DNA of 63,265 bases, filler included, from Intoshia linei (lineage: Eukaryota > Animalia > Orthonectida): the NCBI GenBank assembly GCA_001642005.1. It is 6 parts of 6 records of this genome, joined end to end, with 100 filler letters (N's around TTAATTAATTAA, not from the genome) between each part and the next. Parts side by side here need not be neighbours in the genome. Positions count along the whole stretch, not along the records: positions 1 to 9,216 come from LWCA01001383.1; 5 more parts are not named here. One strand, given 5' to 3'. Both the position numbers and the translations under genes were made by a program. Shown here one piece after another: positions 1 through 63,265 of this stretch; position 1 is the first letter of the stretch, and the number at the start of each line of letters is the position of its first letter. The notes under the pieces were generated by a model. The model was not told the DNA's origin, did not search any database, and was given only the letters and a program-made list of their open reading frames with translations.

Positions 1-990
1 TATAAAGATAAATTGACGAACTCTTCAAAATACTCATATGGCCGAGTCCAACAACGTAAAAACTTAAAATTTTGTATTTTTCCAAAGATGGAAGAAGCCT
101 TATTCTATTGATTTATCGAACGGAGATATCGATCTATATCGACTAATGATTTTATTATGACTGAGAAAGCCAAATTTTGTAATAATATTTTTTATCCATC
201 TATAGAATTTAATAGGAGTACAGGATGGTTATACTAATTTAAGGAAAGACATGGCATTATATTGCGTAAAAGCTCTGGTGACTCTTTGTCTGCTGACACT
301 TGTGGAATTGAAAGTTTTAAAGACAAATTATTGGAATCAATGATATCAATTATTTAATGCCGACGAAACTGCCTTTTACTAGAGGAAATTGGATAGAAAC
401 ACATTAACGGATTCCAATGAATCCGAAATAAAAGGATTGAAATCTGACAAAAGCAGATTAACTGATATGGCATGTTGTAACAGTGATGATACTCATAAAT
501 TGCCGTTGTTGGTACTAGAAAAGTCGAAAAATCCACGATGCATCAAGAACACTGCAATACCTGTACTATACGATTCGTCATCTAAGGGGTGGATGACCCG
601 TGATGTCAAGAATTGGTTTTTTACTGGATTTATTGTTACCGTCCAAAAATAAAAATTTAATACCGACTGCCATATTACTTGTCGACAATGCACCTTCACA
701 TATTTTTTATGATAACCTTCAATCAGGAGATGGATTGATTAAGGTAATGTATTTACTACCTAATACAACATCAAAATACTCATAATACAACCTATGGATC
801 AGCACATTCTTTATTCACTAAAATCAAAATATGGTCAAAAATTATATAATGTTTATAATACTGATACTATCAAGATAAAAAAGTTCACGTTTAAAGAAGC
901 TAGTTTAATATTGAATAGTGCATAGAATGATATAAAAACATCATGTATAATCAAATCATGGGAACTAATATTGGGACCTAGAAAATTGGG
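1..990 (+). mobile_element. Degenerate Tigger/pogo (CENP-B/Jerky-like, DDE_1) transposase relic
   Basis: Motifs across stops and frameshifts: STGWLY*FKERHGI (HTH), NADETA, KLPLLVLEKSKNPRC, KGWMT, LLVDNAPSH, LPNTTS..IQPMDQ. Confidence 0.9.
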
Positions 991-1066
991 TGTAGATTTT
1001 CAAATTGATGAAATTGTATTCGATAAATATATGATTTTGATTTATAAAAATGAATGCCTTAAATAA

Positions 1067-2420
1067 CACTGTACAACACTCAAAAAAAGAGCACAACAAA
1101 ATATATATCATTGAACTCTACGAAAAATTTGGGGAAGAATGGTAAAATTTCTAAAGGTTACTTAGATCTAGTTTTTGAAGGACAAAATGATTAAAAATAA
1201 CCAGTAATAATGGCGTTGTCATTTAAAATCTATGTAACTAAATTAAACTTCGTTTAGATTAATATGAGTTTTTCGTGTTTGTCAGTTTTCATGTTTTAAC
1301 GATTTTTGTTTTATTTGTGGTGTATATTTATTCAAAACCAAACGGAGCTACAATTTAATTGGAACTAAATTAGGTAACAAATGTACATCCTTTTATGAAG
1401 AAATCCAACAAGAACCATGGACTCCAAACAAATGTTATGCATTTTGCTACAGACATGTGATGAATAACAATACATTTTTCGATTCACCCAAGATTTGGTC
1501 TCCACCTAAATTCAGTGATGGTTGCTATTTCTGCTATGTCAGAAAATATCAATTTAAAAAAATTGAACTATTGGCAAATATACCTCAATTTGTCCATAAA
1601 TTAAATTATCTACGGCAGATATCAACCTCTACACGTCAATATCTAATATTACTACGACAAATTCTATGGATTAAACAAAGGATCCTAGTTTCTGTGAAGA
1701 AAAAAAGCCAGTTATGAATGACTTAAATGACCTAATATTTAAAATCATTTTGACTAATTTTAATCTATTGTCACAATACCATAAAATAGGATGCCTTATG
1801 AGCTTCAAAGTCCATTTGTTACAATGTCATTTCAACAAATTACCAGATACACATCTTTATTTCTGATGAACATGGGAAACGTTTCCATTAAACTTTGAAA
1901 AAATTTGAAGAAAGATTCGCCGGAAAAAATATGATATCAAGATTAAAGATTGTGTGTGGTACACAAAAAACACCAAATTGTCATAAATAAATTTTCTTAA
2001 ATATAAATGTACTTATTTTTAACGCTTTATAGATTTTTTTTGAGATCTCACCAGATTTTCATTCCTAATACAGTATAAGGTACACATTTTGGGGTACATG
2101 GTATATATCAAAATTTTCTGCTCTTTTCAAAAAAACCAATTTTTTATCTACAGTAGATATCGTAAATTTTTCATCGGAATATGTTATATACTTATATACA
2201 CTTGACATTAATTATTTATATTTTTAAAGGGTCACAACATTGAATTTTATATCAACTTGAATATAACTTAATTATATACACTTTAAAAATGAAATATCTC
2301 AAGATTACGATCTAATCAGATAGAATGACAAACATTATTCGAATCCTGACAGTGTTATCTAAGCCATACACTAAATTTCGTTCTGCTCTTTTATAATTTT
2401 TCCGAAAATGTTGTACCGTG
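1067..2420 (+). mobile_element. Internally deleted TIR DNA transposon of the widespread metazoan family with a Cys-rich N-terminus and a SDEHGERFHQ-type C-terminus
   Basis: TIRs CACTGTACAACA (1067-1078) and TGTTGTACCGTG (2409-2420); relic peptides NDFCFICG, EPWTPNKC, KIWSPPKFSDGCYFC, then GCLMSFKVHLLQCHFNK..SDEHGKRFH*..FEERFAG..CVW. Superfamily not assigned. Confidence 0.75.
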
Positions 2421-2574
2421 TAATAAAAGGAGAATTCATAATAATATTGAAATCGCTATGTAAACATTGCTATTAATTATTCGTGGTTTTTTAAACAGAT
2501 TTTGTAACTATTTTTGTCAAAAAATCGAGAATAACCTGTTCTAGTAAATTATTAATCCTATTGGTTTGAACAGA

Positions 2575-2985
2575 GCAAGGCCATCATGGGTATGGAAAAA
2601 TTCCGTTGTTGCGTCAAATCAGAAAACTAAATCTTATATCGCAATCAAGGATCCTAGAAACATCTCTACAGTTACCGGTTAACACACTCACCTATTATCA
2701 GCCTTCACTTATAGATTTAAAGATGTTATGAAGAAGCATAAATGGTATGTACCAGGAATGAATCCACAACAATTGTGCAATCGTCTAATGGGTATCTGCA
2801 ACTACAATAATATCAAACAGGAATTAACATGCAAAGATTATAGCACATTCGACGGCACCATTTCATTATAAATGCGTAGAAATATTGAACAACCTTGTTA
2901 TCTAAGGTGGGTTAATATAAAGCATAGAGAAGAGTTACAAAAATTACTTAATGACGAACTTGACGCGCCTGCTGTTACTCGTCAC
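2575..2985 (+). other. Endogenous viral element: nodavirus-like RNA-dependent RNA polymerase (protein A) fragment, pseudogenised
   Basis: One frame reads NQKTKSYIAIKDPRNISTVTG*HTHLLSAFTYRFKDVMKKHKWYVPGMNPQQLCNRL..KDYSTFDGTISL*MRRNIEQPCYLRWVNIKHREELQKLLNDELDAPAVTRH. This matches the noda-like pattern: motif F region KDPRNIS, WYxPG, motif A DYSxFDGT, CYLRW. Stops at 2680 and 2869; ends before motifs B and C. Confidence 0.85.
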
Positions 2986-3122
2986 AGAGAAAGAGGAATG
3001 TTAAAAAATTATGTGGTCCATACACATTTGTGTGACAAGTGGTCCATGGTGGAAAAGGTTTGGGAAACACTGTTCTAAATGGTGACCGAATAGCCTATAT
3101 GGGTTTGGTTTTTCAATGTAAC

Positions 3123-3901
3123 TACACGCTATTCCTTGTTAACGGAATAAATGGTCTTAAAAAAAATCTCATCAAATTAATGACAATGTGTTAAGAAAAA
3201 CATTCTCGTTAACGGAATTTTTTATAAATAAGGTATACTTCGAATCAGTGGTTCCCGGTTGGGACCAAAATTATATTCCTGTTCCGTGAGATTCAATTAA
3301 AATATAGAAATATTTTGATCAATTTTGTTTATTTTTATAGGAGAATTTTTAATATATTACAGAGTTTCTAGCTGTTCATTATCCCAAAGCCTATATAACG
3401 CTACAAAAAATGGTTACAAATATTATCAAACCCCCACATTTATCCCATCATTAATAAAATTAAATAAAAAATACCTTTTCAAGCCCTAGAAAAAATTGAA
3501 TATTACTGATATTTTTTTGAAATGATGAAAAACCCTTAATTTTTTCATCAATGTTTTATATTTCATGTTTCCCTTGGGTCCAAAAAATTAATATTTTTGA
3601 AATGAGATCCGTGCACTATTTAAACCAGAAACCACTGCATTAAAGCAATGAAAAAAAATTTTATTCCACTTAACCTATATTTCCAATTAATTTCATATTA
3701 ATTAATACTCAACCATTATTATCATCATTAATCATGAAGAAAATAAAATGTTTGACGTATCTAAAGCTTTTAATTAGCTTTTAACCGAACAAGATCTAGC
3801 ATAATTATGATGTAAGTCATTTTAAGTTGAAGTACAAAAATTCACAGTCCGTTAATCAGGAATTTTCCGAGGAAGTCCGTTAAATAGGAATTAGCCTATA
3901 C
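3123..3901. mobile_element. pogo/Tc1-like MITE with a nested hAT-type MITE (about 3245-3638)
   Basis: Imperfect inverted ends ..CTATTCCTTGTTAACGGA / TCCGTTAAATAGGAATTAGC; inner element CAGTGGTTCC..AACCACTG shares its body with about 36300-36467 and 57370-57685. Confidence 0.55.
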
Positions 3902-4010
3902 TACATAGTCATGAATTGTTTATTCATGAAAAATTGAAAATCCCGTTTATTAATTAGTAAACACCACATATTACACACGTATATAAAAAAAATCACAAAA
4001 AAAATATTAC

Positions 4011-7000
4011 GAATTGTTGTCAAGTTCAAAAACTTCCAATAAACCGACAATTCGTTTATGGTTCAATTTTTTGTGGATATCTGCTTCTCGTAAAGCATGT
4101 CTAGAAATATATTAAATTAAAACAATAAATTAAATACCTAATGTAATTGCTCTTTTTTTCTTCTTTCCAATCTTTGTTCAGTTGGTGAATCTTACAAGCA
4201 GTATATATATTATCTTTTGTATCAAATGCCTAAATATACATTCATTTAATCTTATAACAGACTCGAAAAGTGCACATTAAGTTGTGATATCAAATGTTAA
4301 AAATATTAAATCAACCCATAATTATAAATCTCATTTTTTCAACGCCTAACCATTAATACGAAAGTTGTTATCAAATACACCAAATAATAATCAAAAATTG
4401 AATAAATAAATTAAATTTGAAATAATAAAACGGCTTATTCTTACCTGTTGTAGGCTCTATCTTGACAAATCTTAAAAATATAAAAATTAAATTATATACC
4501 ATATATACTTCACTAAATCCACCCTTTCCTAATAAATTCAATAACAAATATCTTTCATTCAAAAATGGATAATCATTGAACCTAAATAATATTAAAACCT
4601 GTAAAATATAAAAAAAATACTCAGAATTGGCTTGATTTTTAAGTCTACGAATTTCTCTAATATGAACATTACGATCTCTATCAAGTCGATCCAATTCGAT
4701 TTGAAGGTCTAACTCTTCCTTTCGCAAAGACATTAACCGTAATTTTAAAATGTTTTCATATTCATAATATTCATCCCACGACAATCTATAATGTAAATCA
4801 GTTTTTTTTGATAACTACATTTTTATAATCTACAAATAATGAATAATGATTTGACCAAAATGAATTTGCGAAATAATCAATAAATAAAGAATTCAGCATT
4901 TTTAAAAACATTTCGGGGAATGTTTACAATGAAACATTGAATTAAATTTCAATAATAAATAAATCCGAATAACAAATTTTTGAAAAAGTGAAATTGTATA
5001 GTAATAATGAAAAAGAATAAGGAATCAATTTATAAGATTGAAACCCATATTTCTCTATTTTAAATATGTAGTGTCAATTGTCACTTTTTTTGAAATTGTA
5101 AAATGAATATTTAAAGATGATGAAAATTTATATCAAAAAAGGGATGTTTGGTAATTTTAGGGGTATAACAAGTTAGCAAAGTTAAGTTTGTAAAAATTAA
5201 AACAAATAAATTACTCGTTTTCCATTTTGGGTTCCAAACCAGATTCTTTGCTAGACGATTCTCTACTATTAGTTTTTATTTGAGATATATATTGAGGTTT
5301 TCTCTTTAATATTGACTTTTTCTCCTTTTCGAAATTTTCACGTTCTTTCTTTAAACTTTTTTGATTTCTTATTATACATGTAAATACGTAAGTAAGGTGT
5401 CTAATTTACCCGTATAGCTTTATAAATGAACTCCCTTCAATCCATTTTTCTTGAAATGAAGAACCACACCGTTGCATAGTAAAATGCCCCAATGACAGCA
5501 TTTTCAAATTTGTTTTTGTTTCATCATTATTTCTCTCTACTTTCGACTAAACTCTATATTTTACATGTTGATTATAATCAAATTTAATAAAGTTTGGACC
5601 GTTAAGTCACATATGAAAAAGTTAAACACCGTAGGCCCGTTTGGTTTAAATTGATAAATGTAGTTTTTATAATAATAATCTAAATTCCGTATAAATGACT
5701 ATACCAAAGAAAATATCTAGTAAACCTTATTAATGAGTAAATCAACAATGATTTCATTCATTTGTTTATGTTTCTGAGACAAGCATTCCATATCTTCCTT
5801 TTGTTTAGTATACATTGAGTCACATTCCAAAATTTTCTAAGAAAATTATATAACATGCATTGCAAATTGCAATGGTACCATATTTTAACAACGTCATAAA
5901 AATTTATCTTTTAAATCAAAAAAAAGTTTACCCTAATTATTGGGCCTAATAAATTAAAACTTGTTTATTATTATATTAATAATTTAGAATAAATTTAAAA
6001 AATTAATTTATGTTACCTCTTGCAATACATTAATTCTGTCATTTTTTTCTTCCAATTCAGCAATTTTATTATTTTCGATATGTTGCATTTTTAAACAAGT
6101 GAGAGATGTCTACAATAAAGTGTATAAAATAATATACATGTACTAGGTTGACTGTAATGTACTACGTACAAACAGCACCTAGCTTTGCCGAAGGCAATGC
6201 ACGATTTTTTGAAATTGTAAAATCAATATTTACATTTTCAATTTTTATTTTAATCGAAATATTTGAAAAATATTGGTCGATAATATATTAAAAATTTTTC
6301 ACCAGAAATGCGTAGATTTCTGGGGTTGAACTTTTGTATTTATATTCACTGAAATAAATTCTATCAGAATAATTTTTTTTTTAATTTTCGGACCGTTAAT
6401 TATTTCACATTTTTTATTTCGGAAAAAAAAATATGAATACTAAAATGTTTTTTGACCGTGAAGTCGTCACTTATTCGGATTCAAATTTTTTGTGTGTGTT
6501 AACAGGATACAACTGTACCACCTGTTAATTTTTTAACTTCTAGCGTTGTTTAAAAAAAAGGGGTAATTTGTGGTTTTAGCCCTGAAGATATAATTTTTTT
6601 AAATTTAAATTTATAATACTTATTATTTTAAAATCATAATCAGCGTATATATTTTTTGAAATTCTCCAACTCGTTTGATTTTCAAAAAAAAGGACAATGG
6701 GGGTTTTTGACCCGTAAGATGTGAGTTTGGGAGGTTGAAATTTATCTTATTAAATGTCACGGAAAAAACTGTAATTGAAATGTGAACTTTATAAAATTCT
6801 AAGACTGGTAGTTATTGAAATAAAGTGAAACACACACATACAAACAAATATTACGGAGCATATTATATCAGTTAGGATAATAAATAATACAAATTTAATA
6901 TAAGTACCTGAACGTGCTTATCAAATTCTCCCATAGACCATGAATCTGGAGTTGAAATAGAAAAATCTGAAAGCCCCTAAAAATTAATATTTAAAAACAA

Positions 7001-7479
7001 AACTTTACTGAATTTGTATTTTGCAATTTAGAATCAGTATCTTGAGTTGAATCGGTGTTGGGAGGAGGCATGCCAAACATTTTAAAATTTAATCCTAAAA
7101 TAAACATTTTAAAACAATATAAAACAAACTACCATTCAAATCATTTTTAGATTTTTTTGGAGCAACTTCATGGTTCATATTTTTTCGCCTCAAAAATTGA
7201 GTAGTATTCTAAATTCGCAAATTTTAGCATTTTGAAATTTTGAAACATGCATCATGAAATTATAGTATACGTTAAATAGAGATTGTGGTGCCGGTTGAGA
7301 GTGAGAAGTGTTTGGATATAGACCCATGTCAATTTTGTCTGACAGTTCCGATTGAGTAAATGGACGTATTAAATGAATACTCTAAAATTAAAATTGATTA
7401 ACGTCAATGTAAATATAATAATTCCATTTACTCTGTCGCTAAATCTATTTTCCAACAAGTTTTTTTTTCTGTCGTTCAT
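4011..7479 (-). CDS. TLK: Tousled-like serine/threonine kinase, multi-exon, 5' part (continues beyond the window start)
   Basis: Exon 1 7432-7479 [16 protein letters not shown]; coiled coil [21 protein letters not shown]; [27 protein letters not shown]; [21 protein letters not shown]; exon 4011-4100 [30 protein letters not shown] ending in a GT donor. The next expected exon (FCTVLEY) is not seen in 1-4010. Confidence 0.93.
6143..6877 (-). mobile_element. Non-autonomous Helitron, apparently full length, in a TLK intron
   Basis: On the minus strand: A|TCCTAAC.. start with a GTTT/GT microsatellite; 3' hairpin TGTAC-GTA-GTACA followed by CTAG|T. Confidence 0.7.
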
Positions 7480-7744
7480 CAATTTTTAAATATAAAATTT
7501 CATTTCATTCAAATTTATCAATTGATTTAAAAATTTTTTAAAATTATTTAAACTTTATTTTTTAGGAATTGATGCTACGGCTTTTTTATTTCAAATATTT
7601 CAATATTTATATATATTTCATATCGATTATAGCTGTATTTAATAACGAGATACTACTGTAATTGAAAAATGTACTCAATTAAAATTTAATTATTTCAGTC
7701 TTATTTCAACTACACTTCACAGTACTATTAATGATGAAATACTT

Positions 7745-8104
7745 ATGCTTAAAGTATCAAACGTTGAAGTTAAACGAATGTTAGGTGTAAATTTAATGAT
7801 AGAATCTATCTCATCTAAAAAAGTTTTCGAAAAGATTTTATCATTACATTTAGAAAACATATTTCCAAATATTTTTATATCGTTGCGTATTTTTTTAACA
7901 TTATTCGTATATGTAGCTTCTAATGAGAGAAGTTTCAGTGTGCTGAAGAGGATAAAATCTTACATGCAATCTTCAATTAGCCAGGATCGCCTAAATGGAT
8001 TGGCAAAATTAAATTTTAATTCTGATAAAGCAGAACTAATTGATTTTTCAGATGTAATAAATAAATTTGTTAAAAAAAAGGCACGCAAAGCATTTATTAA
8101 GTGA
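7745..8104 (+). mobile_element. hAT transposase C-terminal dimerisation domain relic
   Basis: FPNIFISLRIFLTL..VASNERSFSVLKRIKSYMQSSISQDRLNGLA..F..KKARK. Confidence 0.9.
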
Positions 8105-9216: not shown

Positions 9217-9316
9217 NNNNNNNNNNNNNNNNNNNNNNNNNNNNNNNNNNNNNNNNNNNNTTAATTAATTAANNNNNNNNNNNNNNNNNNNNNNNNNNNN
9301 NNNNNNNNNNNNNNNN
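9217..9316. other. Artificial contig spacer N44-TTAATTAATTAA-N44
   Basis: Identical 100-nt spacers at 39832-39931, 51067-51166, 55626-55725 and 61882-61981; the 12-mer gives stop codons in all six frames. Confidence 0.95.
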
Positions 9317-12834: not shown

Positions 12835-13041
12835 CTACATTTTGTTGACAAATTTCCAAAATATATATTTTTTTTTAAAATGGAACCTTGGTCTCGAATG
12901 AATCTTGTAATATTTTTTCATTGAATTTAAGTATTTGAACAATTCCTCGTCACTGTTAAAATGGTTAGGCGGTTCAATTTGACATTGGATAAATTGCATA
13001 CAGACCAATACGAAGAATAATAAGAAATAGTAAGTTTTCAT
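12835..13041 (-). CDS. NPF: Neuropeptide F/Y (NPF) precursor
   Basis: Signal peptide MKTYYFLLFFVLVCMQFIQC, then QIEPPNHFNSDEELFKYLNSMKKYYKIHSRPR(F), a PP-fold pattern with YY and RPRF. A GT donor falls in the last Arg codon (AG|GT), the conserved NPY/NPF intron site, so the ORF tail is probably intron. Confidence 0.85.
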   Translation of the reverse strand: MKTYYFLLFFVLVCMQFIQCQIEPPNHFNSDEELFKYLNSMKKYYKIHSRPRFHFKKKYIFWKFVNKM

Positions 13042-13772
13042 TAAATCAACAAAATGTATCTTGAATAAATGTGAAATAATATGTTGAAATATAAAAACTA
13101 CTATATTTAGCTTTTATATTCTATAATATTGATTTGTACTATTGATTCAAATGGCGCATTCCTTAGGATGAGAATAAACACTAAATCGACATTTTCTCAT
13201 CCCATCTCATGTACTTAAAACGATATATTTAGCATAATTTCGTTTAATTATATACAATGTATAACTCAAACTTTATCAATTGCAACATAAAAATTCATTT
13301 AACATTGTAATGACAAAATAATTATAGTAATATTTCTACTTTTTATTATATAATATTATACATTATGTATATTATTATGTCATCGTATACAAATAATTTC
13401 ATTAAATAATAATTTCATTAATAATTATTGATTTAAACATTAATTTATATTCATTACATGCGTTTTGGACATAATTTATTGCATTAATCGTTTAATATTT
13501 TTTTTAATTTGTTAATATATCCTTATATAACACTAGTCAATAAAAATAGACTTTCAAAAATCTTTCCACATCATATCATGTATATTATATATACATGTAT
13601 GTAGTTTTTTCTGGCATTATTATGTATATTATTTTTTTATTGGTTTACGTCAGGTACCCGAGATACGAGGTAGCAAAAATAAGGTAATATAATTAATAAA
13701 TGGATATATTAGCTTTGTTTTGTTAGTGTATATCTAGCTATGACTGTCATATTATTAAATATATAATTTAAA

Positions 13773-19750: not shown

Positions 19751-22700
19751 TTATAGGCTTTTTTTAAATAATTTTTCAAGGTTTTTAATGCGTTCTTTCA
19801 AAATACAATTGTTAATTTCCAGTTTTTCTACGTTTTGTAATTTTTCTTTTAGCTTTATATTTTCAATTTCCAATTTTTCAATATATGCCTAAATGAATAT
19901 TATTAAATTTTTATTTTTTAACGAAATAAAAAATTTTTTCATGTAAAGTTATTAATAAATCAATGTGCTCAAAATGCAATTGACTAAATATTGTTTTAAA
20001 TAAAAATTTTGGGAATTTCACATGACTCAATTATAATATATATTATAATTAAAGAAATTAATAAAATCATCAATAAGGTTTTTAATAATTGCAAGATTCT
20101 AAGTAGGGTTGGCAATTTACCAAATAAAATTTTTTATATCGAATCTAATTTAATCTCTATAATGTTTAAGTGCTTTTTAAAATATAACGTTAACAGTCGC
20201 AAGTGGATAAAAATAACCCATATTAATTAATGAAAAAAATATAAAACAGTCCAATCGTAAAATTTAATAGTTTGTATTATAAAATTCGATACAATCATAT
20301 TTAAAAATATTTTGCATCACACAATTCAAAATATTTTTTTTATGCTTTGATTAACTGCATAAATGGCGTCGTTTTCTTTTTTTCATTTGTAAATACATTT
20401 ATAATCTCTTATTCACTGAAATATTCGTAATTCCATTCATTTTCACTTTTTGAATCAAATGTATCTTGTTCTTTATCATAAAAAATATCATTTTTAGAAT
20501 TCTCAATGTACAAATTGATATCAAAATATAAGTATCGTTCTAGATACGAGATAGTGAAAAAATTGACGTGGAAATTCCAAGTTGGATTTTGTGTCTGATA
20601 AAATTCTAAAACTCTGTACTTGAAATAAACAATTACTATATTATAGATTTGCATTTATATAATTTAAATTACCGTTATAAATTTTTATCGATTGCCAACC
20701 CTAATTCTAAGTTTTGATTTCATTTATATTTTAATTTTAAATTACACTAAATATGAGGTAAAAATTCATTATTAGAAATGTTTTTTAAACAAAACGTTGG
20801 AAAAATATACTTTATACATAAATGTTATGTTGTACATATATAATATACTTTACTTCTTGATTAAGGTTTAATATTTTGAAAATGTTTATGTGTGAAATGT
20901 AACACTGTAAATTAAATAATAAATTACAGATAAATTGATATTTTTATTAACGTCATCTAAAAATTTATTTATACAAATTTAATCTACCATTTAATATTAC
21001 CAACAACAGCCAAAGACAATATATGGTGAAATTGGTATGTTATGGAAGATTTTGCTTGCTATAATTTTCAGACATTTAGAGATGTATAGAAGGTTTATTT
21101 TTATCATGTTGATAACAACAGTAAAACGTGGGATTCAGGGTATATAGGAGACGCACATGATACACCGGGAATTATAAAAATTGCTGTTAAAAAACCAACT
21201 CAATGCGTAACACAACTGCAAATCAAAGAACACGACCAACAATGTACCATAAGATCATTTGTTGAAAGATTCTTCGGAAGACTAAAGCAAGCTTTCTCAG
21301 TTTTTTCTGGGATTTATAGATATAATCATCAAAATTTTGACATTGATTTCGATAACACTGTATTGCTCACTAACGAATTGATATGTAAAACTGAATTAAC
21401 CGATGATGATCAAAAATATCAAAAAAAATTATACGCTAAAATTATGGATAAAGAAGACCACATCCACGCCACGTGACGCAAAAAAAAAGAAGACGCAAAT
21501 CAAGTACAGAGAAAATATTAAGAAACGATTAGAAAATTAAATTAAATATTTCTATATTTTTTGTATACAAGTATATTTATGATATATATATATTATATAT
21601 ATACTTATGAACAAATTTTTAAGTTATATAAATTAGTTTATTGTTGCTTCATCATCAAATGTTATTTTTATGACTAAATAAATCAATTAAATTTGCGTAA
21701 TTAATAGACAACCGTATGGCTATGCATATCATTTCGTTTTATCTAGTTGGCGTAATAATACAAAATATATTTAGCCTTGTCATTTATTATCCATTGTTAA
21801 TTAATTAAAATTTAACGATTTAAATGTTATTCTACATTCAAAACTATTAACTGAACCTTATTTGGCTTTCCTATAATTAATTTGATTATATGAGTAAGTA
21901 ATACTCTTAATATGCATATTTAAATAATAATATGATATTTTGTGCCCTTGAGCACCCTTATAAACTTTTTGAATTTTGTTAAGATTTTGGATTTTATGTC
22001 TGCTAATCAAAACGAAAACTTTGGGCTCTTGTCTATCAGAAATTCATAAAAATTGAAATTATGTCCACCCTAGTGTATATATTTTTTATAACGTTATTTC
22101 ATATCTATATTTAATTTAAAATTACCTTCTTTTTTCTACGTGACTTTGCAGCGGCTTGTCTAAATTAATTAGATAAGTTAGATATGTTCTGATTCAGAAC
22201 ATATTAATCGGCGGGATAAATACTAACCGATTTCATTTTTTTGGGGGATAAAAGCTTAAAATCAAAAAAGGTTCCACATGCAAAATGGACACCCTATTAT
22301 ACAGTGTATACTAAAAAAGAGTCTCTAGTTAGTGACACGTTTAGTTTGGAATGTTTGGTTGGTAAGATCTGCCAACTCAAGAGTTCACCATTTTTGGTAA
22401 AATTTGTATTTCTCAATATATTTTCCTAATCGTTGATAAATATTCAATGTTTACCTATTTTTTAACCTTTTTGTTTGAATTCTTCCTTTGTATACATTTT
22501 TTTTATTCCTTTCTACTATTCAATTAATGTATAATTTAATATTATCGTAAAATGTAAATCTACCTCACATTTAACCAAATCGATTTAAGACTTAAAAACG
22601 AAAATATTACTAAAATCTTGATGGAAGTAATAATAAGTCTACTAAAAAGGAAAAGAGCTCATAATATAAACATAACGCACATGTAGAGTGTAAAATATAA

Positions 22701-24000
22701 ATGTACAAAAGATACGGCATGGAACTACATTTTTTTGGAATTTTGGAATGCTATTTATGACAATTTTAAGGGTTGTAACTATAATTGTATTGTTTTTTAT
22801 TTTCTTTTTAAGATTGCGTTATTAAGAATATGATCGATTAAGACTTATAAAGTCAAACTGTTTGTAGTAAAATTTATACGTCGCCTCGACAGAGCTAGCT
22901 GTTTGTACAAAGTACATAGCATTCATGTTAATAATATAAATTAAAAAAAAAAATGCATAATATAGTGATATATAAAATAAAATAATATCTCAAACCTTTC
23001 CAATAAATTTAATAAATGGAATAATTGATGAAAAATATTTCCCATAGAATCTTAATAAAATTTATTTTATGTGAACAATTGTATTTTAATTCCAAGGTTC
23101 TCAACGTGGGCCACAGAAAATTTTCAAAATTAAAAAAAATTTGGCAATAAAATTGCTAACCAAAACAAAATCTATAAATTCATAATGAATTTGAAATATA
23201 AATTTGGAATTATGGTTTACAGATCTTCAAAACTTTGAACCAAATGATGAAACCAGTCCTGAACTAACTGAAAAACTTTTTGACTTAATTTAATTATTTT
23301 AAGTCTTAAAAGATTTGAAATTAGTCAGACGAATAGAAAAAAAAGGTGTATTTGGATTTATGGGAATTCAAGAATCAAATCCAATTGTGTTTGATAATGT
23401 TCAACCAAGCATTATTGCTTTTCTTACAACATGGCTTGTAGAAGCTAGATTTTCAGTAGTGGTCGATATTTTTAGTAAAACAAGGTCAAAATTGGATGTG
23501 AACCGAGGAATAATGCGATTAAGATTGATTAAACTAACAGAAATTGATTACGCTTCATTGTGCAACAAACACCATTGCCAAGGCAGTCACTAACTAGTAC
23601 AAATTTAAATAAATAAAGCATTTTACTGTAAATAAAAGTAGATATTTTAAGGTGGGCCATGGTCTGAAACTAGTTGACAACCGCTGTTTTAGTTGAGTAA
23701 AATGCATTATAAACCGAAAATTAAAGTGACCCAAAAAAATCTAATTGATCCATAATTATATTTTCTTATTTCATAACAAAACTTGAAATTTAGTCCGAGT
23801 AGATTTAAAATAATCAGATAAATTCAAGCATCACTGACCAACTAATTCATATTTATACTATTTACCATGTTCCTTTAGTATGTCTTTAGCATTATTTGAC
23901 AATTCAATCAGTATCTTTCTAAAAATTTATTGATAAATAATAATTTTCAATTACTGAAAAGAAGGACGTCGATCAATTATATCCATACGAATTTGCTCTA
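19751..24000 (-). CDS. CREB: CREB/CREM/ATF1-family bZIP transcription factor, multi-exon (5' end and linker exons tentative)
   Basis: KID domain EQIRMDIIDRRPSFQ|KILIELSNN (exons ending at 23955 and 23866-23918); basic region IQTKRLKNR|QAAAKSRRKKK (exon ending at 22455 and exon 22126-22159); zipper exon 19751-19888 AYIEKLEIENIKLKEKLQNVEKLEINNCILKERIKNLEKLFKKSL*. Phase-2 introns just after RRPSx and inside KNR, as in CREB genes. Confidence 0.85.
20104..20703. mobile_element. hAT MITE in a CREB intron
   Basis: TIR TAGGGTTGGCAAT / ATTGCCAACCCTA; perfect 8-bp TSD ATTCTAAG. Confidence 0.9.
21090..21477 (+). mobile_element. PIF/Harbinger-ISL2EU-like (DDE_Tnp_4) transposase relic
   Basis: WDSGYIG..KKP..RSFVERFFGRLKQAF..YRY..FD..LLTN. 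Confidence 0.7.
23092..23686 (+). mobile_element. Non-autonomous hAT (Buster/Charlie-like) element
   Basis: C-terminal relic FLTTWLVEARFS..RSKLDVNRGIMRLRL..HHCQGSH; TSD TTTTAATT/TTTTAGTT; close inverted copy at 53697-54385. Confidence 0.88.
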
Positions 24001-39831: not shown

Positions 39832-39931
39832 NNNNNNNNNNNNNNNNNNNNNNNNNNNNNNNNNNNNNNNNNNNNTTAATTAATTAANNNNNNNNNNNNN
39901 NNNNNNNNNNNNNNNNNNNNNNNNNNNNNNN

Positions 39932-40404
39932 TGTTAACAGTTCCTCTTTAATCCATAATTCATCTTTAACGTTAAAATACCTTCGTTTATTATCAGATAA
40001 TTTAAAAGGCCATTTATTCCGAATGTATCTTTTAACATTATTTAACAACATATCACGTTGAGTCGCCTCTAATATTTCATTATTACTAAGGAAAGAATCA
40101 TTTTCTATTAAGTCAACATAACGTATATCAATTTGTTCAACCTCTGAATTCACAGGCATTCGCGACATACAATCGGCTATGATATTATCATTCCCTTTAA
40201 TATATTCTATGTCATATAATTATATTCACGTACAAATATTGACAATCTTTTGATGCGTGCAGCTGCATGTCCATGCTTAACATTTCTTAAACGAAATATG
40301 AGTGATAAGTGGTCAGTTTTTAATGTGAATTTGCGTCCATACAGATAATTATGCCATTTTCGTATTGCTACTACACACGCAAGCGTCTCTTTCTCACCAT
40401 TCAC
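39932..40404 (-). mobile_element. Ty3/Gypsy LTR retrotransposon pol fragment (RNase H and connector)
   Basis: EKETLACVVAIRKWHNYLYGRKFTLKTDH..AAARIKR..YIKGNDNIIADCMSRMP. Confidence 0.88.
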
Positions 40405-53696: not shown

Positions 53697-54385
53697 TAGC
53701 GGTTCTCAACCTTTTTCAGGCCATGACCCAAAAAAGTTCTGCCTAAAATTCCATGGACCACCTTAAAATATTTTTATTTACAGTAAAATGCTTTATTTAT
53801 TTAAATTTATACTAGTTAGTGACTGCTTTGGCATTGGTGTTTGTTGCACAATGAATCGTTATCAATTTAATCTTAATCGCATTATTCCTCGGTTGTTCAC
53901 ATCCAATTTTGATTTCTTCTTACTAAAAATATCGACAACTGCTGAAAATCCAGCTTTTACAAAAGCAATAAGCAAAAGTAGGAAAAGCAATAATGCTTGG
54001 TTAAACATTATCAAACACAATTGGATTTGATTCTTGAATTCCTATAAATCCAAATACACCTTTCTTTTCTATTCGTCTTACTAATTTCAAATCTACTTTT
54101 AAGACTTAAAATAATTAAATTAAGTTCAAGAGTTTTTCAGTTAGTTCAGGAATGGTTCCATCATCTGGTTCAAAGTTTTGAAGATCTGTAAACCATAATT
54201 CCAAATTTATATTTCAAATTCATTATGCATTTATAGATTTTGTTTTGGTTAACAATTTTATGACTTAATACACCAAATTTTTTTTAATGTTAAAAATTTT
54301 AATTTTAAAATTATTAAATAAAAATTTAAAAATTTAATTCTGTGGCCCACCAAAAATTCATTGTAGCCCACGTTGAGAACCTCTG
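53697..54385 (-). mobile_element. Non-autonomous hAT (Buster-like) element, second copy
   Basis: Inverted copy of 23092-23686; perfect TSD ATTTAAAC. Confidence 0.9.
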
Positions 54386-57112: not shown

Positions 57113-59189
57113 CTAATTTACATGTTAAAATTTAACACGTGGGATTTGAAACTGGAGGATTAAGAGGTCATTTTTCATAATGTTTGGTAAAATCGTATTT
57201 TTAGCAATAAAAATATTGAAAAAACAGGATTTTACACTTAAGGATTGGTATACTTGCATTTTTTATTGTGGGGTTGGATTAAGAGGTTTTTTCTCATCAG
57301 GTTGGTAAAATCAGATTTTTCAAAAAAATATCTGTATGAATGAATAAACGTCTGTATAATATAAATGAGTGGATCCAAAAATATAAAAAAATTGTTATCA
57401 ACTTTGGTTTATTTTTATAGGAAAATTTTTAATATTTATTACAGAGTTGCTAAATTTTAGGAATTTATCCCAAATCTAAGACGCCGCTACATTATCATTT
57501 CAAAAACACCACTTTTATCTCATTTTTAATAATATTTAATAAAAAATACCATTTTATACCCTCAGCGAAAAATCGACTTAGCAAACCCCAAAATAAAGAA
57601 TTTTTTTAATTTTCTTGTTTTCTTTGGATCAAAAAAAAATATATTTTGAAATGAGTCCGTACACTATTTGAATCGGGAACCACTGATCCAAATGAATGAT
57701 CCGTTATATTTGGTACGTTTTTACTCTGGTTGCTTTATGATAAGTGGATTTTTGTCTAAGGGTTTGAAATAATAATATTGACATAAATCATATTTACTCT
57801 TTACCAAAGTTGTTACAGGATGACCTAATTTTATAACAAAAAATTTTTGAAAGAGGTTGCTGAAGGTATGAAAAATTATTTTAAACGTTGTTTAGATTGT
57901 CTACTGCTAGCCTCACAGTTTCCGTCCGTATCAAAATTGATATTTATAATTTTATTTTGCAAAGATTTAAAATAAAATTTGCTCACTATTGTGTGATAAT
58001 AACAAATGTTATGTAAATGTAGAAAGAATTATTCCAGTTACTACTAGAATCACTACTAGTTTAAATTTAAATTTTAAACAAAATTTTTTGAAAATGAGAA
58101 TTTTCACCGGGAATGCATAGACTTCTAGGGTTGAAATTTTGTATTTATATCAAATGGAATAAGTTATATCAGAATAATCCTTTTATTTTAATTGTAGGAC
58201 CATTAATTATTTCAAATTTTTTGTTTAAATAAAATTATTTCGAAATAAAAAAAAATGAATTTTAAAGTTCTTTTTTGACCGTGAAGGCGTCACTTATTCA
58301 GATTGAAAATTTTTTTTTTTCACAGGATACAACTGTACTATCTGTAATTTTTTTTAAAATCTAAAGTTGTTTTCATTTAAAAAAAAATGGTAATGTGGAG
58401 TTTAGATAGTGAAAATTATTTTTTTTGATGTTTCCATTTATGATTATGCTTATGATTTTAAAAACTATCCCAGAATTTATGTTTAAAAAATTTTTAGGAT
58501 ATGTTTCATTTTTAAAACAAAGGGTAATTTGGGGTTTAACATGAAGGTAACCGTTTCTGAGGCTAAGATTAACGACAATATTAATGCTTTTAAAACGTGT
58601 TCCATATTTTTGAAATTCCGTATGAAATTTTTGCATTGATTTTGGGCTGATTTTTTTAAACAAAATGGGAAATTGGGTTTTTAACCTTGAAGGATTCAAA
58701 TTTTGAAACTGAAAAATGGATAAAAACACGTCCTAGGAAAAACGTTATTATAAATTAAGTTTTTTTAAATCCTGCAACTGTCAATTTTTTTAATAAATAA
58801 TTACACACACAGACATTCATTTTTATATACATTTTTTTGTATGTAAAAGATATCAAAATTTAATTAAAATACGAGAAACATTCAGGTAATACTAAAATTT
58901 TCTTTAAAAATTAATTTTATTTATTCAAATTATTATAAAACTATACTACACGTACAATTCATTTTTTATTATTTTGTTAATTTCACCGCTGTGTTCAGCA
59001 GTAATATATTACTAAATATAAAATAGAAAAACAAGTACAGTGGTAATTCAATCATAAGTACTGATAATTGCATAATAAATTTCGACAATATTAATTTTAA
59101 TATAATAATTAATTTTCGCACCGTTAATTATTTCACATTTTTTGTTTTAATAAAATATTTTTTAAGTCTAACGACTGAGCACAGAGATT

Positions 59190-59520: not shown

Positions 59521-60348
59521 AAACTACTTATCTATGATGACGAATAAAAATTTTCGGCTTAAAATTTATTCCAAATAAATTAAAAGTGATGGTACGTATT
59601 TTTTTGACCACTTTAATTTATACTTATATTTAATGTCCATTGACGTTGAAACCAGATACAACACTGATTCAATTTTCATAGATTTTCTTAGAAAAGGTTG
59701 TCTCTTTGATTCAAATTTAAATTATTACAATTAAGGATTTCTGCACGATTTTTTAACAACTTTTACCAAAACCTTTTACATTTACCAAACCTACTGAAAT
59801 TGAGTGTTTGGTGGCTAAATATTTTTGAGACTGATTTTAATATTCGTCAAACAATTTAATCAATTTTATTTTATCATTTATCTACAAATCATTTCTTTTT
59901 CTTTTCAAATTTAAATTCATATTGAATGGTTACTTTTCTGAAATTTATAAGTAACGTGATTGAAAATTAATACAAATTTATGTTTATTTACACAAATTCA
60001 TATTCACAGTTCATATTGAACAGAAACCACTGTATTTTAAATTTTCTTATGACAGAAAACTGGACGATGGTATCAAATAATATTGATTGTATATAATATA
60101 ATCAATAATAAAATTTTCTAAAATTAGTCCCAAATCAACTGATATACAATTAATATTACAAGAAATAGTTACCTACATGATACATTTAAAATCAGATATG
60201 TAACGCAAATATAAAATAAATATATAATACATAATTGAGACCAAGAAAACTAGTTTATATTTAGGACTATCCAGAATAATACATGGTAATATATTGATCA
60301 AATAATTTATAATTAAATGAAATTGGAATTAAACTAAAATATTAGGAT

Positions 60349-61122
60349 ATGAATAACGAAAAGCTAGCTAGCAAAAGCTACTACACATATGACGGAATAA
60401 AATACCCAAGTACTTTAAAGATTGAATCAATAAAAAATATAAATTACATGAATTTAACAAATAAAGATGTTCTCATTGCGTCATATCCAAAATCTGGAAC
60501 TCTTTTGATAAGTAACATTGTTTTTTTGTTAAAAAAAAATGCTGCCAATGAAAAGGAAAATTTAATAGACAGCAAAAACAACTTTAAAGATTTAACATTT
60601 TTCATTGATATTGAAACGGAGGGAAAATCAAATTTACAAAAAGTTAACGAGTCAAATGAATCAAAAATTTTACGAACTCATTTACTACCTAAATATGTGT
60701 CTAGTCAAATTGAACAAAGTGACACTAAAACAATTTACATTATTCGAAACGCGAAAGATGTGCTAGTTTCATATTATAATTTCATGAAATATACTTATGA
60801 TGGTACATGGGATGAATGGTATCAACTTTTTAAAGATAAAAAATTAGTGTTTGGAGATTATTTTGATCATGTTAATGCATGGAGAGAATATTCTAATCAT
60901 GGAAAAATTTTATTTGTACATTATGAAAATGTTCTTACATGTCCAAAAATTGAAATTGAAAAAATTGCTAGATTTTTAAATATTCACATTTCAGGGAATG
61001 TTGTAACGAAAATTGCACAAGCATGTTCTTTTGATAATATGAAATCAAATTTTGAAGAAAAATTTAAAAGTATTGAACCTAAAATGAATTACTTTAGAAA
61101 AGGTCAAGTTGATTCATGGAAG
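60349..61122 (+). CDS. Cytosolic sulfotransferase (SULT1-like); last exon not seen
   Basis: 5'-PSB SYPKSGT, catalytic RTHL, 3'-PB RNAKDVLVSYY, FRKGQVDSWK followed by a GT donor at 61123. Confidence 0.93.
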
Positions 61123-62336
61123 GTACATTTTTATTGTAAAATTTAAGTCTAAATTAGGGGAGCCTCCCTAATCTTTAACCTAATCACCTGGAGTATAGTT
61201 TAGTAAATTTGATAAGTTTCATAAATTGACTTTTATATTATTGCTATGTAATTTATGATTTTTTAAAACTTTATCATTAACTGAAATATAACATTGTATA
61301 ATTTTGGTAACCTTTTTTCTACTAAATTTTTTTACGTATACATTACAATGTAATGTAATGTATTAAATTAATGATTTTATTTTTTATCGAATTCATTTTA
61401 TTTGCAACCTTTTTTTAGTGTTTTTAAAAACAAAACATTCAAGCTAGTCCATTACTGATATAAAATTGAATGTCTGTTTGTGTTACCGTTTATTTAAAAA
61501 ATTAAGAGTCGACGAATTTAAAAAGCCCAATTTATAATACAGTTTTTCGTGACCCATGTTCATGTTTAATTTTCATTTTCCGAAATTTGTTCTTCGCTGT
61601 GAAAAACCCAAATTTCTTTATTTTTTAAAATATAATCAGCCCAAAAATTTAAATAAATTAAAATCTGGGACGCATTTTAAAATCATTAACATTGTCGTAA
61701 ATCTCAGCGTCGGAAACGTACTTCGTACAACTGGGAGACAAACATGTTTACTTTTATCTTGAATATCTTCAATTATCCCAAAATTTAAATTTATCAAAAT
61801 TGCCAATGCGCCATAGGTTGTTCACTCCTGAATTGTATGATTCTATATTTATATTTTATTGTACTTTTTTTTTTATTTTATNNNNNNNNNNNNNNNNNNN
61901 NNNNNNNNNNNNNNNNNNNNNNNNNTTAATTAATTAANNNNNNNNNNNNNNNNNNNNNNNNNNNNNNNNNNNNNNNNNNNNTAATTTTGTCGTTACAAAT
62001 ATTGAATATAAACTTCTTTAAATAGATGTTGCTATTGACACTTAGTCCTATTGGTTAAATTTTAATTCTGAGTCATAATAAATATCAAGATATATAACTA
62101 AAGTCATTTACCGAATTATCGACATATTTTGGACTTATGTTGTTTTCCGGTTAGCGACCAATGACTACATATGTAGTCATTCCCAGTTCTAGTATCTCAA
62201 AACCTTAGAAATTTTACACATATTTAAATAACATATTTCGAAAATCATAATGTTTGACCAAGTATAAAGGGTGTCGGTCACTAATCGGTTAATAACAGAA
62301 ATTTTTCGCCTAGAACTAGACACAACCAAAGTGTGA

Positions 62337-63265
62337 ATGATAGTATTGAGTCGAACACATTCTCAAAATTTACTGATAAAATTGATAATTGATACACATG
62401 TACCTATAAATATTACAGAATTAAAACGTTTCGTTGATTACATTACATTCATATCTCCAAATACTACACTTCCTTCTCAAAATACTATAATATTTTATTT
62501 TAAAGATCAAACAAATGTGTTATTTTCAAAAATACATAAACATTTATCATTAGTTAATAATGTCTTAATTATTTTCGATATATGGTCAAACAAAAGTATG
62601 CGCTCTCATATTGGAATCATACTCGTTTATCAACTCAATGGTACATGGGTAGAAGTCTTGGTTTCATGTTCACTGTTCAGTCAACGACACACCGGTGTAA
62701 ATATTAGAAGTAAAATTGTTGAGCATATAAAATATTGGAATTTAAACAAGTTTTCAGCTATTGTTGCAGACAATGCTTCTAATAATGTAAAAGCTCTCAA
62801 TGTCGACGAATATGATTTTGATTAAGACATTCCTGAACAAAATAAAAATATGATAGATATTCAAAATACTCATTTTGTCAGATATTTTTCACACACTGTG
62901 CAACTGACTGTAAACGACATATTGAAAGATAAAAAAAAAATTGGAGGCATACTTAATATTGTTTCAAATCTTTGCAACTCCATAAGAAAATCGTGCATCA
63001 AAATGTACCAAATATATGAATGTCATCTCTCTACTCCAGTGATGAGATGTGATACTCGTTGGTCTAGTGATTTAAAAATGCTGGAACGTCTTGTGGAAAA
63101 CAACTAGTTTCTAGATATAATGGATAGTTTCAGTCATAGCTAAAAATATCAAATAGATTCACTCATTCGTATTCTCAAACCCTTTCAAATTGTTACTACA
63201 TTAACTCAAAAATCAGATATAAGCATATCTGACGTTATTCCCTTAGTCACTTACCTAAAAAAATC
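62337..63265 (+). mobile_element. hAT (Ac-like) transposase relic with stops
   Basis: DIWS, HTGVNI, ADNASN, SHTVQL, DTRWSS, LKPFQIVT. Confidence 0.9.

Follow-up and report, generated by a model that had tools for sequence, protein, structure and literature searches.

Introduction

The closest described counterpart of the locus reported here is eBxnv-1 of the nematode Bursaphelenchus xylophilus, which its report presents as the first endogenous nodavirus (PMC5177903). According to the same report, nodaviruses have no DNA stage, and eBxnv-1 retains a 570-aa open frame with its catalytic motifs, is expressed and is single-copy; it lies inside a Bel/Pao LTR retroelement, a possible source of reverse transcriptase, and is placed near lepidopteran alphanodaviruses (PMC5177903). 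Non-retroviral EVEs of arthropods and other eukaryotes are, like the fragment described below, short degraded pieces of RNA-virus genes in repeat-rich regions. Reverse transcription in trans followed by capture through repair is established for non-retroviral EVEs generally.

Positive-strand RNA viruses have left few endogenous copies in animals, and eBxnv-1 is the one nodavirus case that we found described (PMC5177903). In the excerpt of a study on RdRp-like database proteins, Nodamuvirales are mostly viral records, and the eukaryote-labelled proteins belong mainly to mito-, mononega-, articula- and bunyaviruses (PMC12548735). Noda EVEs appear to be rare. The word "noda" does not occur in the excerpt of 10.1101/2023.11.03.565523. 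The literature matches listed contained no second noda EVE (supplements of broad EVE surveys may list some), no RNA-virus EVE carried by a DNA transposon (subscription papers lay mostly outside the scope) and no report of viruses of orthonectids. An EVE links a virus lineage to a host, a tie that most metagenomic noda-like sequences lack.

We analysed a stretch of 63,265 nucleotides of the orthonectid Intoshia linei (the window), which holds a record of an unknown noda-like lineage whose identity to the closest sequences found does not exceed about 50%. This fragment resembles eBxnv-1 in being noda-like RNA1/RdRp sequence nested in a degenerate transposon of an invertebrate genome, and neither is close to a known exogenous virus (PMC5177903). 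Unlike eBxnv-1, it is about 140 codons long, has two stops and is devoid of motifs B and C; its neighbours are DNA transposons, which do not encode a reverse transcriptase, and it apparently exists in about four copies. The best explanation, to which we assign a probability of roughly 0.65, is that virus cDNA was patched into a pogo/Tigger element, decayed, and was duplicated with it to about four copies. Beyond the initial annotation of this DNA, the analysis adds the pogo/Tigger remnant, a 1,354-nt TIR insertion, an apparent intronic site in a Tousled-like kinase (TLK) gene and a probable multi-copy state.

Identity of the viral fragment

The noda-like protein A RdRp fragment is located at 2557-2985 on the plus strand, as delimited by profile HMM, tblastn and protein searches. 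When all six frames of the 63-kb window were searched with a profile HMM built from 108 full-length relatives, a single match was significant, at 2593-2985 (+) with 164.5 bits (E 4e-50); 2557 is the wider start of the fragment. In the controls (one reversed and four block-shuffled windows), the best domain scored below 0 bits or nothing was reported. All 150 tblastn alignments of relatives are in frame +1 within 2488-3021, most of them starting at 2599-2623 and ending at 2979-2994. Depending on the relative, the homology starts at 2557-2608. Likewise, the 355 tblastx alignments between the window and 162 viral contigs all fall inside 2563-3000, and this comparison revealed no further viral piece in the window, including a nodavirus capsid gene. 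The same contigs gave no blastn match to the window at E 1e-3. Because the full-length profile matches only 2593-2985, the N-terminal nodavirus capping domain, which is common in relatives, is absent from the window; it was either lost or never captured.

The stretch at 2575-2985 contains 137 codons, in agreement with the initial annotation, which had described about 135 codons in one frame with two stops and four ordered motifs. The motifs KDPRNIST, KWYVPG, DYSTFDGT and CYLRW..ELQKLLNDELDAPAVT follow one another in frame +1 (2548 to 3075), both in-frame stops are TAA (2680-2682 and 2869-2871), and there are no frameshifts. In terms of the RdRp motifs, we take the fragment to begin upstream of F, to include A and to end about 12 residues short of B. 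The ORF tail at 2872-3078 given in the initial annotation is present, starts with ATG and runs into a repeat end, as shown by contigs with loose ends before 3027 (11 contigs) and behind 3077/3078 (12 contigs).

Among solved structures, the sole significant match was an RNA-directed RNA polymerase (PDB 8fm9, E 1e-6), which we take to be Flock House virus protein A. A search of longer proteins returned nine matches, all of them viral RdRps with 38-44% identity, and seven are annotated with a nodavirus capping domain. When the 62 residues between the stops were used as a query against 1.84 billion representative proteins, 44 matches were obtained; 33 carry Noda_Vmethyltr and nine others a viral RdRP family, and the remaining two are a 97-aa noda-like piece without a family and one repetitive protein. 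No transposase or cellular enzyme was found among these 44 matches, and none in PDB at E <0.3. The best hits of the structure, longer-protein and representative searches are thus noda-like RdRps rather than cellular or transposon proteins. The earlier assignment to a nodavirus-like protein A palm is upheld by the HMM score, the PDB match and the capping and/or viral RdRp domains of 42/44 representatives, and on sequence grounds we regard the fragment as a noda-like RdRp palm. Pfam did not recognise the fragment (best E 0.08, an unrelated DUF), none of eight candidates among proteins of similar length was significant, and an exact-pattern search of viral contigs with the inter-stop stretch gave 14 pattern matches, none of which was related.

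The best identity to relatives is 44-51%, about 50%, and no relative above about 51% was present among the proteins, the best 80 viral loci or the best 80 metagenome loci. The 97-residue noda-like RdRp piece among the representative matches, P0039, also covers motifs F to A and is possibly another EVE or a cut contig.

The fragment has a GC content of 0.356, which is above that of the window (0.256) and below the median of the viral contigs (0.50; n=162; 1/162 at or below 0.36). This value fits either an AT-rich virus or a shift towards the composition of the host. Rfam gave no matches in positions 1-8000. No tandem repeats were found at the fragment junctions, and 11 short weak arrays occur in 1-6000.

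Decay of the coding sequence

In four relatives, motif B lies 12-14 residues and the GDD sequence 52-54 residues past the end of the match. The catalytic motifs B and C (GDD) are absent from the fragment, and the match ends upstream of both. Because it stops about 12 residues short of motif B and lacks GDD, the fragment is a dead fossil that is unable to make a polymerase, and it has no applied value as a protein.

The fragment keeps 14 of the 18 aligned top-conserved columns, compared with a median of 100% for the viral rows, and only 2/147 rows are equally low. The erosion signal is weaker at looser conservation thresholds, where 28/147 and 5/147 rows are equally low. Under a simple model, two stops correspond to a rough 8% of neutral change (range 1-28%). 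The two stops, which are also present in the X1 contig described below, and the eroded conserved residues are compatible with neutral decay.

Phylogenetic placement

Trees were calculated from 147 rows with FastTree and from subsets of 42 and 29 rows with IQ-TREE. P0039 and P0050 (short matches) and P0014 (unmatched) were omitted, the alpha- and gammanodaviruses were also outside, and the fragment occupies just 41% of the tree columns. In neither of the two IQ-TREE runs did it have a supported sister; its branch was long (0.84-0.94 changes per column), and the nearest rows were P0015 in one run and P0002 and P0051 in the other; the bootstrap of the 29-row run was not fully settled. A sister pairing with P0015 had a FastTree support of 0.64 and a p-AU of 0.26, values that neither support nor reject it.

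Unclassified noda-like protein A sequences (P0015, P0051, P0018 and P0002) cover the same palm region in a colinear manner with 39-50% identity. Named noda-like relatives are Beihai shrimp virus 6, Wenling noda-like virus 2, Beihai noda-like virus 13 and Flumine nodavirus 26. The betanodavirus nervous necrosis virus proteins P0113 and P0114 are 41% identical to the fragment, yet a common clade with them was rejected (p-AU 8e-9, 30 rows). The alpha- and gammanodaviruses were compared only through the weak score to PDB 8fm9. Because of the low identity, the lack of a supported sister, the genera absent from the trees and the 41% column coverage, we designate the fragment as noda-like, from an unsampled lineage, without a genus assignment.

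Presence in genomic DNA

Contigs of three runs, X1, X2 and X3, all from one sample, were compared with the window. A 722-nt X1 contig spans 2510-3231 and contains the fragment plus both flanks, which extend beyond the viral homology by at least 47 nt on the left and 230 nt on the right. It differs from the window at four positions (2639, 2640, 2986 and 3184), none of them at the stops. Another X1 contig (3837-4412) reads through the TLK introns unspliced with no differences. The initial annotation had asked for DNA that joins the segment to its flanks, and the 722-nt contig bridges both sides; X1 is possibly the window's own sample, and we treat it as a second assembly and not as an independent sample. 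With the fragment joined to host sequence in a run that is unspliced over the TLK introns, we are highly confident that it is a genuine endogenous noda-like element.

X2 and X3 are listed as DNA. Their contigs skip the 37-nt intron at 4101-4137 and the intron at 4231-4500, and because they are spliced, these look like RNA runs. No X2 or X3 contig covers 2638-3105; as contigs show presence only, this is uninformative on expression.

Surrounding transposons

A decayed pogo/Tigger-type transposase occupies 1-1066 (+) and is identified by HTH_Tnp_Tc5 (E 3e-5) and DDE_1 (E 8e-19) in Pfam, that is, a Tc5-type HTH with a DDE_1 transposase. It is frameshifted, with the Pfam domains in different frames, contains stops and is cut by the window start. 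Pogo/Tigger elements are cut-and-paste DNA transposons without an RNA stage. The remnant is followed by a 1,354-nt TIR insertion at 1067-2420, in which 11/12 terminal letters match, with a CAC start and a 3-nt TAA duplication; it is presumably CACTA/CMC-like. An X1 contig with a depth of 24.2 joins 1063 to 2421, and the insertion is absent from it. The short side of this joint is 24 letters, below the 30 deemed reliable, but the joint falls exactly at the predicted site.

Within the insertion, a 149-codon open frame at 1268-1717 (+) has Cys/His clusters and no Pfam family. The spliced runs yielded contigs that match it with very high depth (1521 in X2), and because of this depth a relative of the 1067-2420 repeat seems to be strongly transcribed.

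An AT-rich spacer of 136 nt (2421-2556, GC 0.24) connects the pogo remnant to the viral piece, and 2504-2537 is a short host repeat with a depth of 347. On the other side, the viral piece is truncated by a hAT-like MITE at 3001-3072, of which the right end alone is present; many contigs match only 3027-3077, and the hAT label is our assumption from a CAGTGTT-type terminal motif. The following segment, 3073-3235 (+), is the putative right end of the amplified unit, with GTTAACGGAAT-type subterminal motifs and TA at 3234-3235; its assignment as a terminus is inferred. A second end that resembles this putative 3231-3235 terminus lies near 3905. Both are candidate right ends for paired termini around the viral piece, and the left end would be outside the window.

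Another hAT-like MITE at 3246-3637 has CAGTGGTT termini and is related to 57378-57685. At 3232-3245, eight to nine X1 contigs deviate identically from the window, giving a palindromic junction and a match with the 8-mer after 3637; because of this shared deviation, the MITE seems to be nested in a larger repeated element. We also considered a Pack-MITE bounded by hAT-like ends (2350 and 3072) but dropped it, as the flanking 8-mers differ and 2350 is inside the 1067-2420 insertion.

No long direct repeats (LTRs) around the viral piece were found in 1-8000, and no LTR, poly(A) or target-site duplication borders it. The neighbours are DNA-transposon pieces, and an LTR-captured EVE of the eBxnv-1 type is not what we observe.

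Copy number

The X1 contig that carries the fragment (2510-3231) has a depth of 28.4, compared with 8.1 for the overlapping contig at 3206-3352, 6.6 for 3549-3865 and 6.3 for 3837-4412. Other repeat-copy contigs among the matches listed mostly have depths of 4-11. The depth-28 contig stops at 3231, where four contigs continue into other sequence. It abuts the depth-24 contig, which reaches to 2510, at the repeat with an overlap of less than a full word. Dispersed copies with different flanks may be reflected in the depths of 24-28 versus 6-8 and in the four contigs that diverge behind 3231, with the reservation that contig depth is not equal to copy number and comes from one DNA run, possibly of the window's own sample.

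On this basis, the fragment is quite probably present in several copies. The depth of 28.4 against 6-8 in the neighbours, together with the empty-site contig at 24.2, suggests about four near-identical copies, all with both stops and with a divergence well below 1%. The contigs also suggest that most copies have the empty site, with the pogo remnant linked to the spacer before the viral piece, and that the window's copy alone has the 1,354-nt insertion. The amplification would postdate the stops and probably occurred together with the transposon.

Tousled-like kinase gene

Exons of a TLK gene are located at 4011-4814 (-), as indicated by matches to TLK2 (PDB 5o0y, E 3e-19 and E 0.004) and by spliced X2 and X3 contigs, which also confirm the 37-nt intron at 4101-4137. 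The exon at 4011-4100 stops at a GT donor in the middle of the kinase domain, and the window does not contain the exon that follows it. The spliced contigs have a loose end before 4011 and continue as what reads as the next kinase exon. Given this exon boundary and the absence of the following exon from the window, 1-4010 reads as an intron of the TLK gene if the assembly holds across 3352-3549, and the viral piece would then be antisense relative to the pre-mRNA. No contig among the matches listed spans this segment, and the link between the fragment and the TLK gene is that of the window's assembly.

The open frame at 4503-4814 (-) contains a 13-residue insertion relative to human TLK2, which points to a second micro-intron in this exon, in frame and about 39 nt long.

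Proposed origin and alternatives

The history that we favour would begin with a past germline infection, which is likely, by an unknown noda-like virus of the host lineage. A host retroelement probably supplied, in trans, the enzyme that reverse-transcribed the viral RNA1, and the cDNA would then have been patched into the 3' part of a pogo/Tigger element during the repair of a germline break. The captured piece presumably decayed and lost its downstream part at the hAT-like MITE end, although the order of these steps is conjectural. The decayed piece, judging from the depth, would then have been copied along with the element to about four near-identical copies, and the 1,354-nt insertion probably entered the window's copy last.

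For the mode of amplification, pogo transposition is given slightly less than even odds against another kind of duplication. Because the pogo transposase here is broken, mobilisation would need an active relative, and none was seen in the window. The most specific version, in which pogo/Tigger captured the noda-like cDNA and then carried it as cargo to about four loci, one of them antisense in the kinase intron (a Pack-element route), is tentative and somewhat doubtful. If true, it would be the first virus record for the host lineage, in which none is described. If the copies are bounded by pogo termini, an RNA-virus fragment would have been multiplied by a DNA transposon and not by a retroelement.

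The alternative that survives best, which we consider unlikely, is that a genuine EVE landed by chance in a dead repeat cluster and that pogo was never its carrier; the extra copies would then be segmental or tandem duplications, or a depth artefact from collapsed haplotypes or uneven amplification. In its favour, four or more DNA-transposon pieces are piled up in the 4-kb region, the window shows no paired pogo termini, depth is not copy number, and the window past 3231 has its own low-depth contigs. However, two overlapping contigs show a fall in depth from 28 to 8 over no more than 100 nt, and a depth of 6.3 is seen in the conserved kinase exons, where collapse would be expected to be most complete. 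The empty-site contig likewise exceeds the single-copy level with its depth of 24, and the four contigs depart alike at 3231, as at an element end.

An antiviral function, in which the fragment would be retained or exploited as a template for small RNAs and antisense viral sequence in the TLK pre-mRNA would feed piRNA or siRNA production, is improbable. The antisense orientation and intronic position would suit such a role, the kinase transcript is present in the spliced X2 and X3 contigs, and EVE-derived piRNAs are established in arthropods. However, one copy alone is placed in the intron, the stops and erosion fit neutral decay, and with a decay of roughly 8% (1-28%) the sequence would pair poorly with that of a living virus.

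Contamination or a chimeric assembly, with an infecting virus or the DNA of a co-sampled organism joined to host repeats, is very improbable. A single sample contains the fragment and 3352-3549 is unbridged among the contigs listed, but an RNA virus is not expected in an unspliced DNA library, nor with two stops in its polymerase, and the second assembly yields the identical 722-nt join to repeats that are abundant in X1. An origin of the motifs from a cellular or transposon protein, or by chance, is negligible, since the failure of Pfam alone to call the fragment (best E 0.08, an unrelated DUF) is outweighed by 164.5 bits versus controls below 0, by 0/44 cellular or transposase matches and by none in PDB at E <0.3.

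Other features of the window

The window contains further DNA-transposon remnants: a hAT dimerisation domain at 7646-8104, a DDE_Tnp_4 (Harbinger-like) piece at 21090-21476, an 87% identical inverted pair at 23117-23662 and 53751-54300, and a putative hAT-like frame at 62337-63107. Gaps are located at 9217, 39832, 51067, 55626 and 61882, each as two 44-N runs around 12 letters, and none is near the viral piece. An open frame at 39884-40219 (-) adjoins a gap and, by a sequence motif, presumably resembles an LTR-retroelement pol. With its dense genes, 26% GC, 37-nt intron and NPY/NPF-type peptide gene, the window has the appearance of a compact genome of a bilaterian invertebrate. An apparently intron-poor sulfotransferase gene is found at 60346-61146 (+) (Atlas score 0.97), and 12838-13113 (-) is an exon of an NPY/NPF-type neuropeptide precursor that ends in RPRF (Pfam Hormone_3, E 8e-8).
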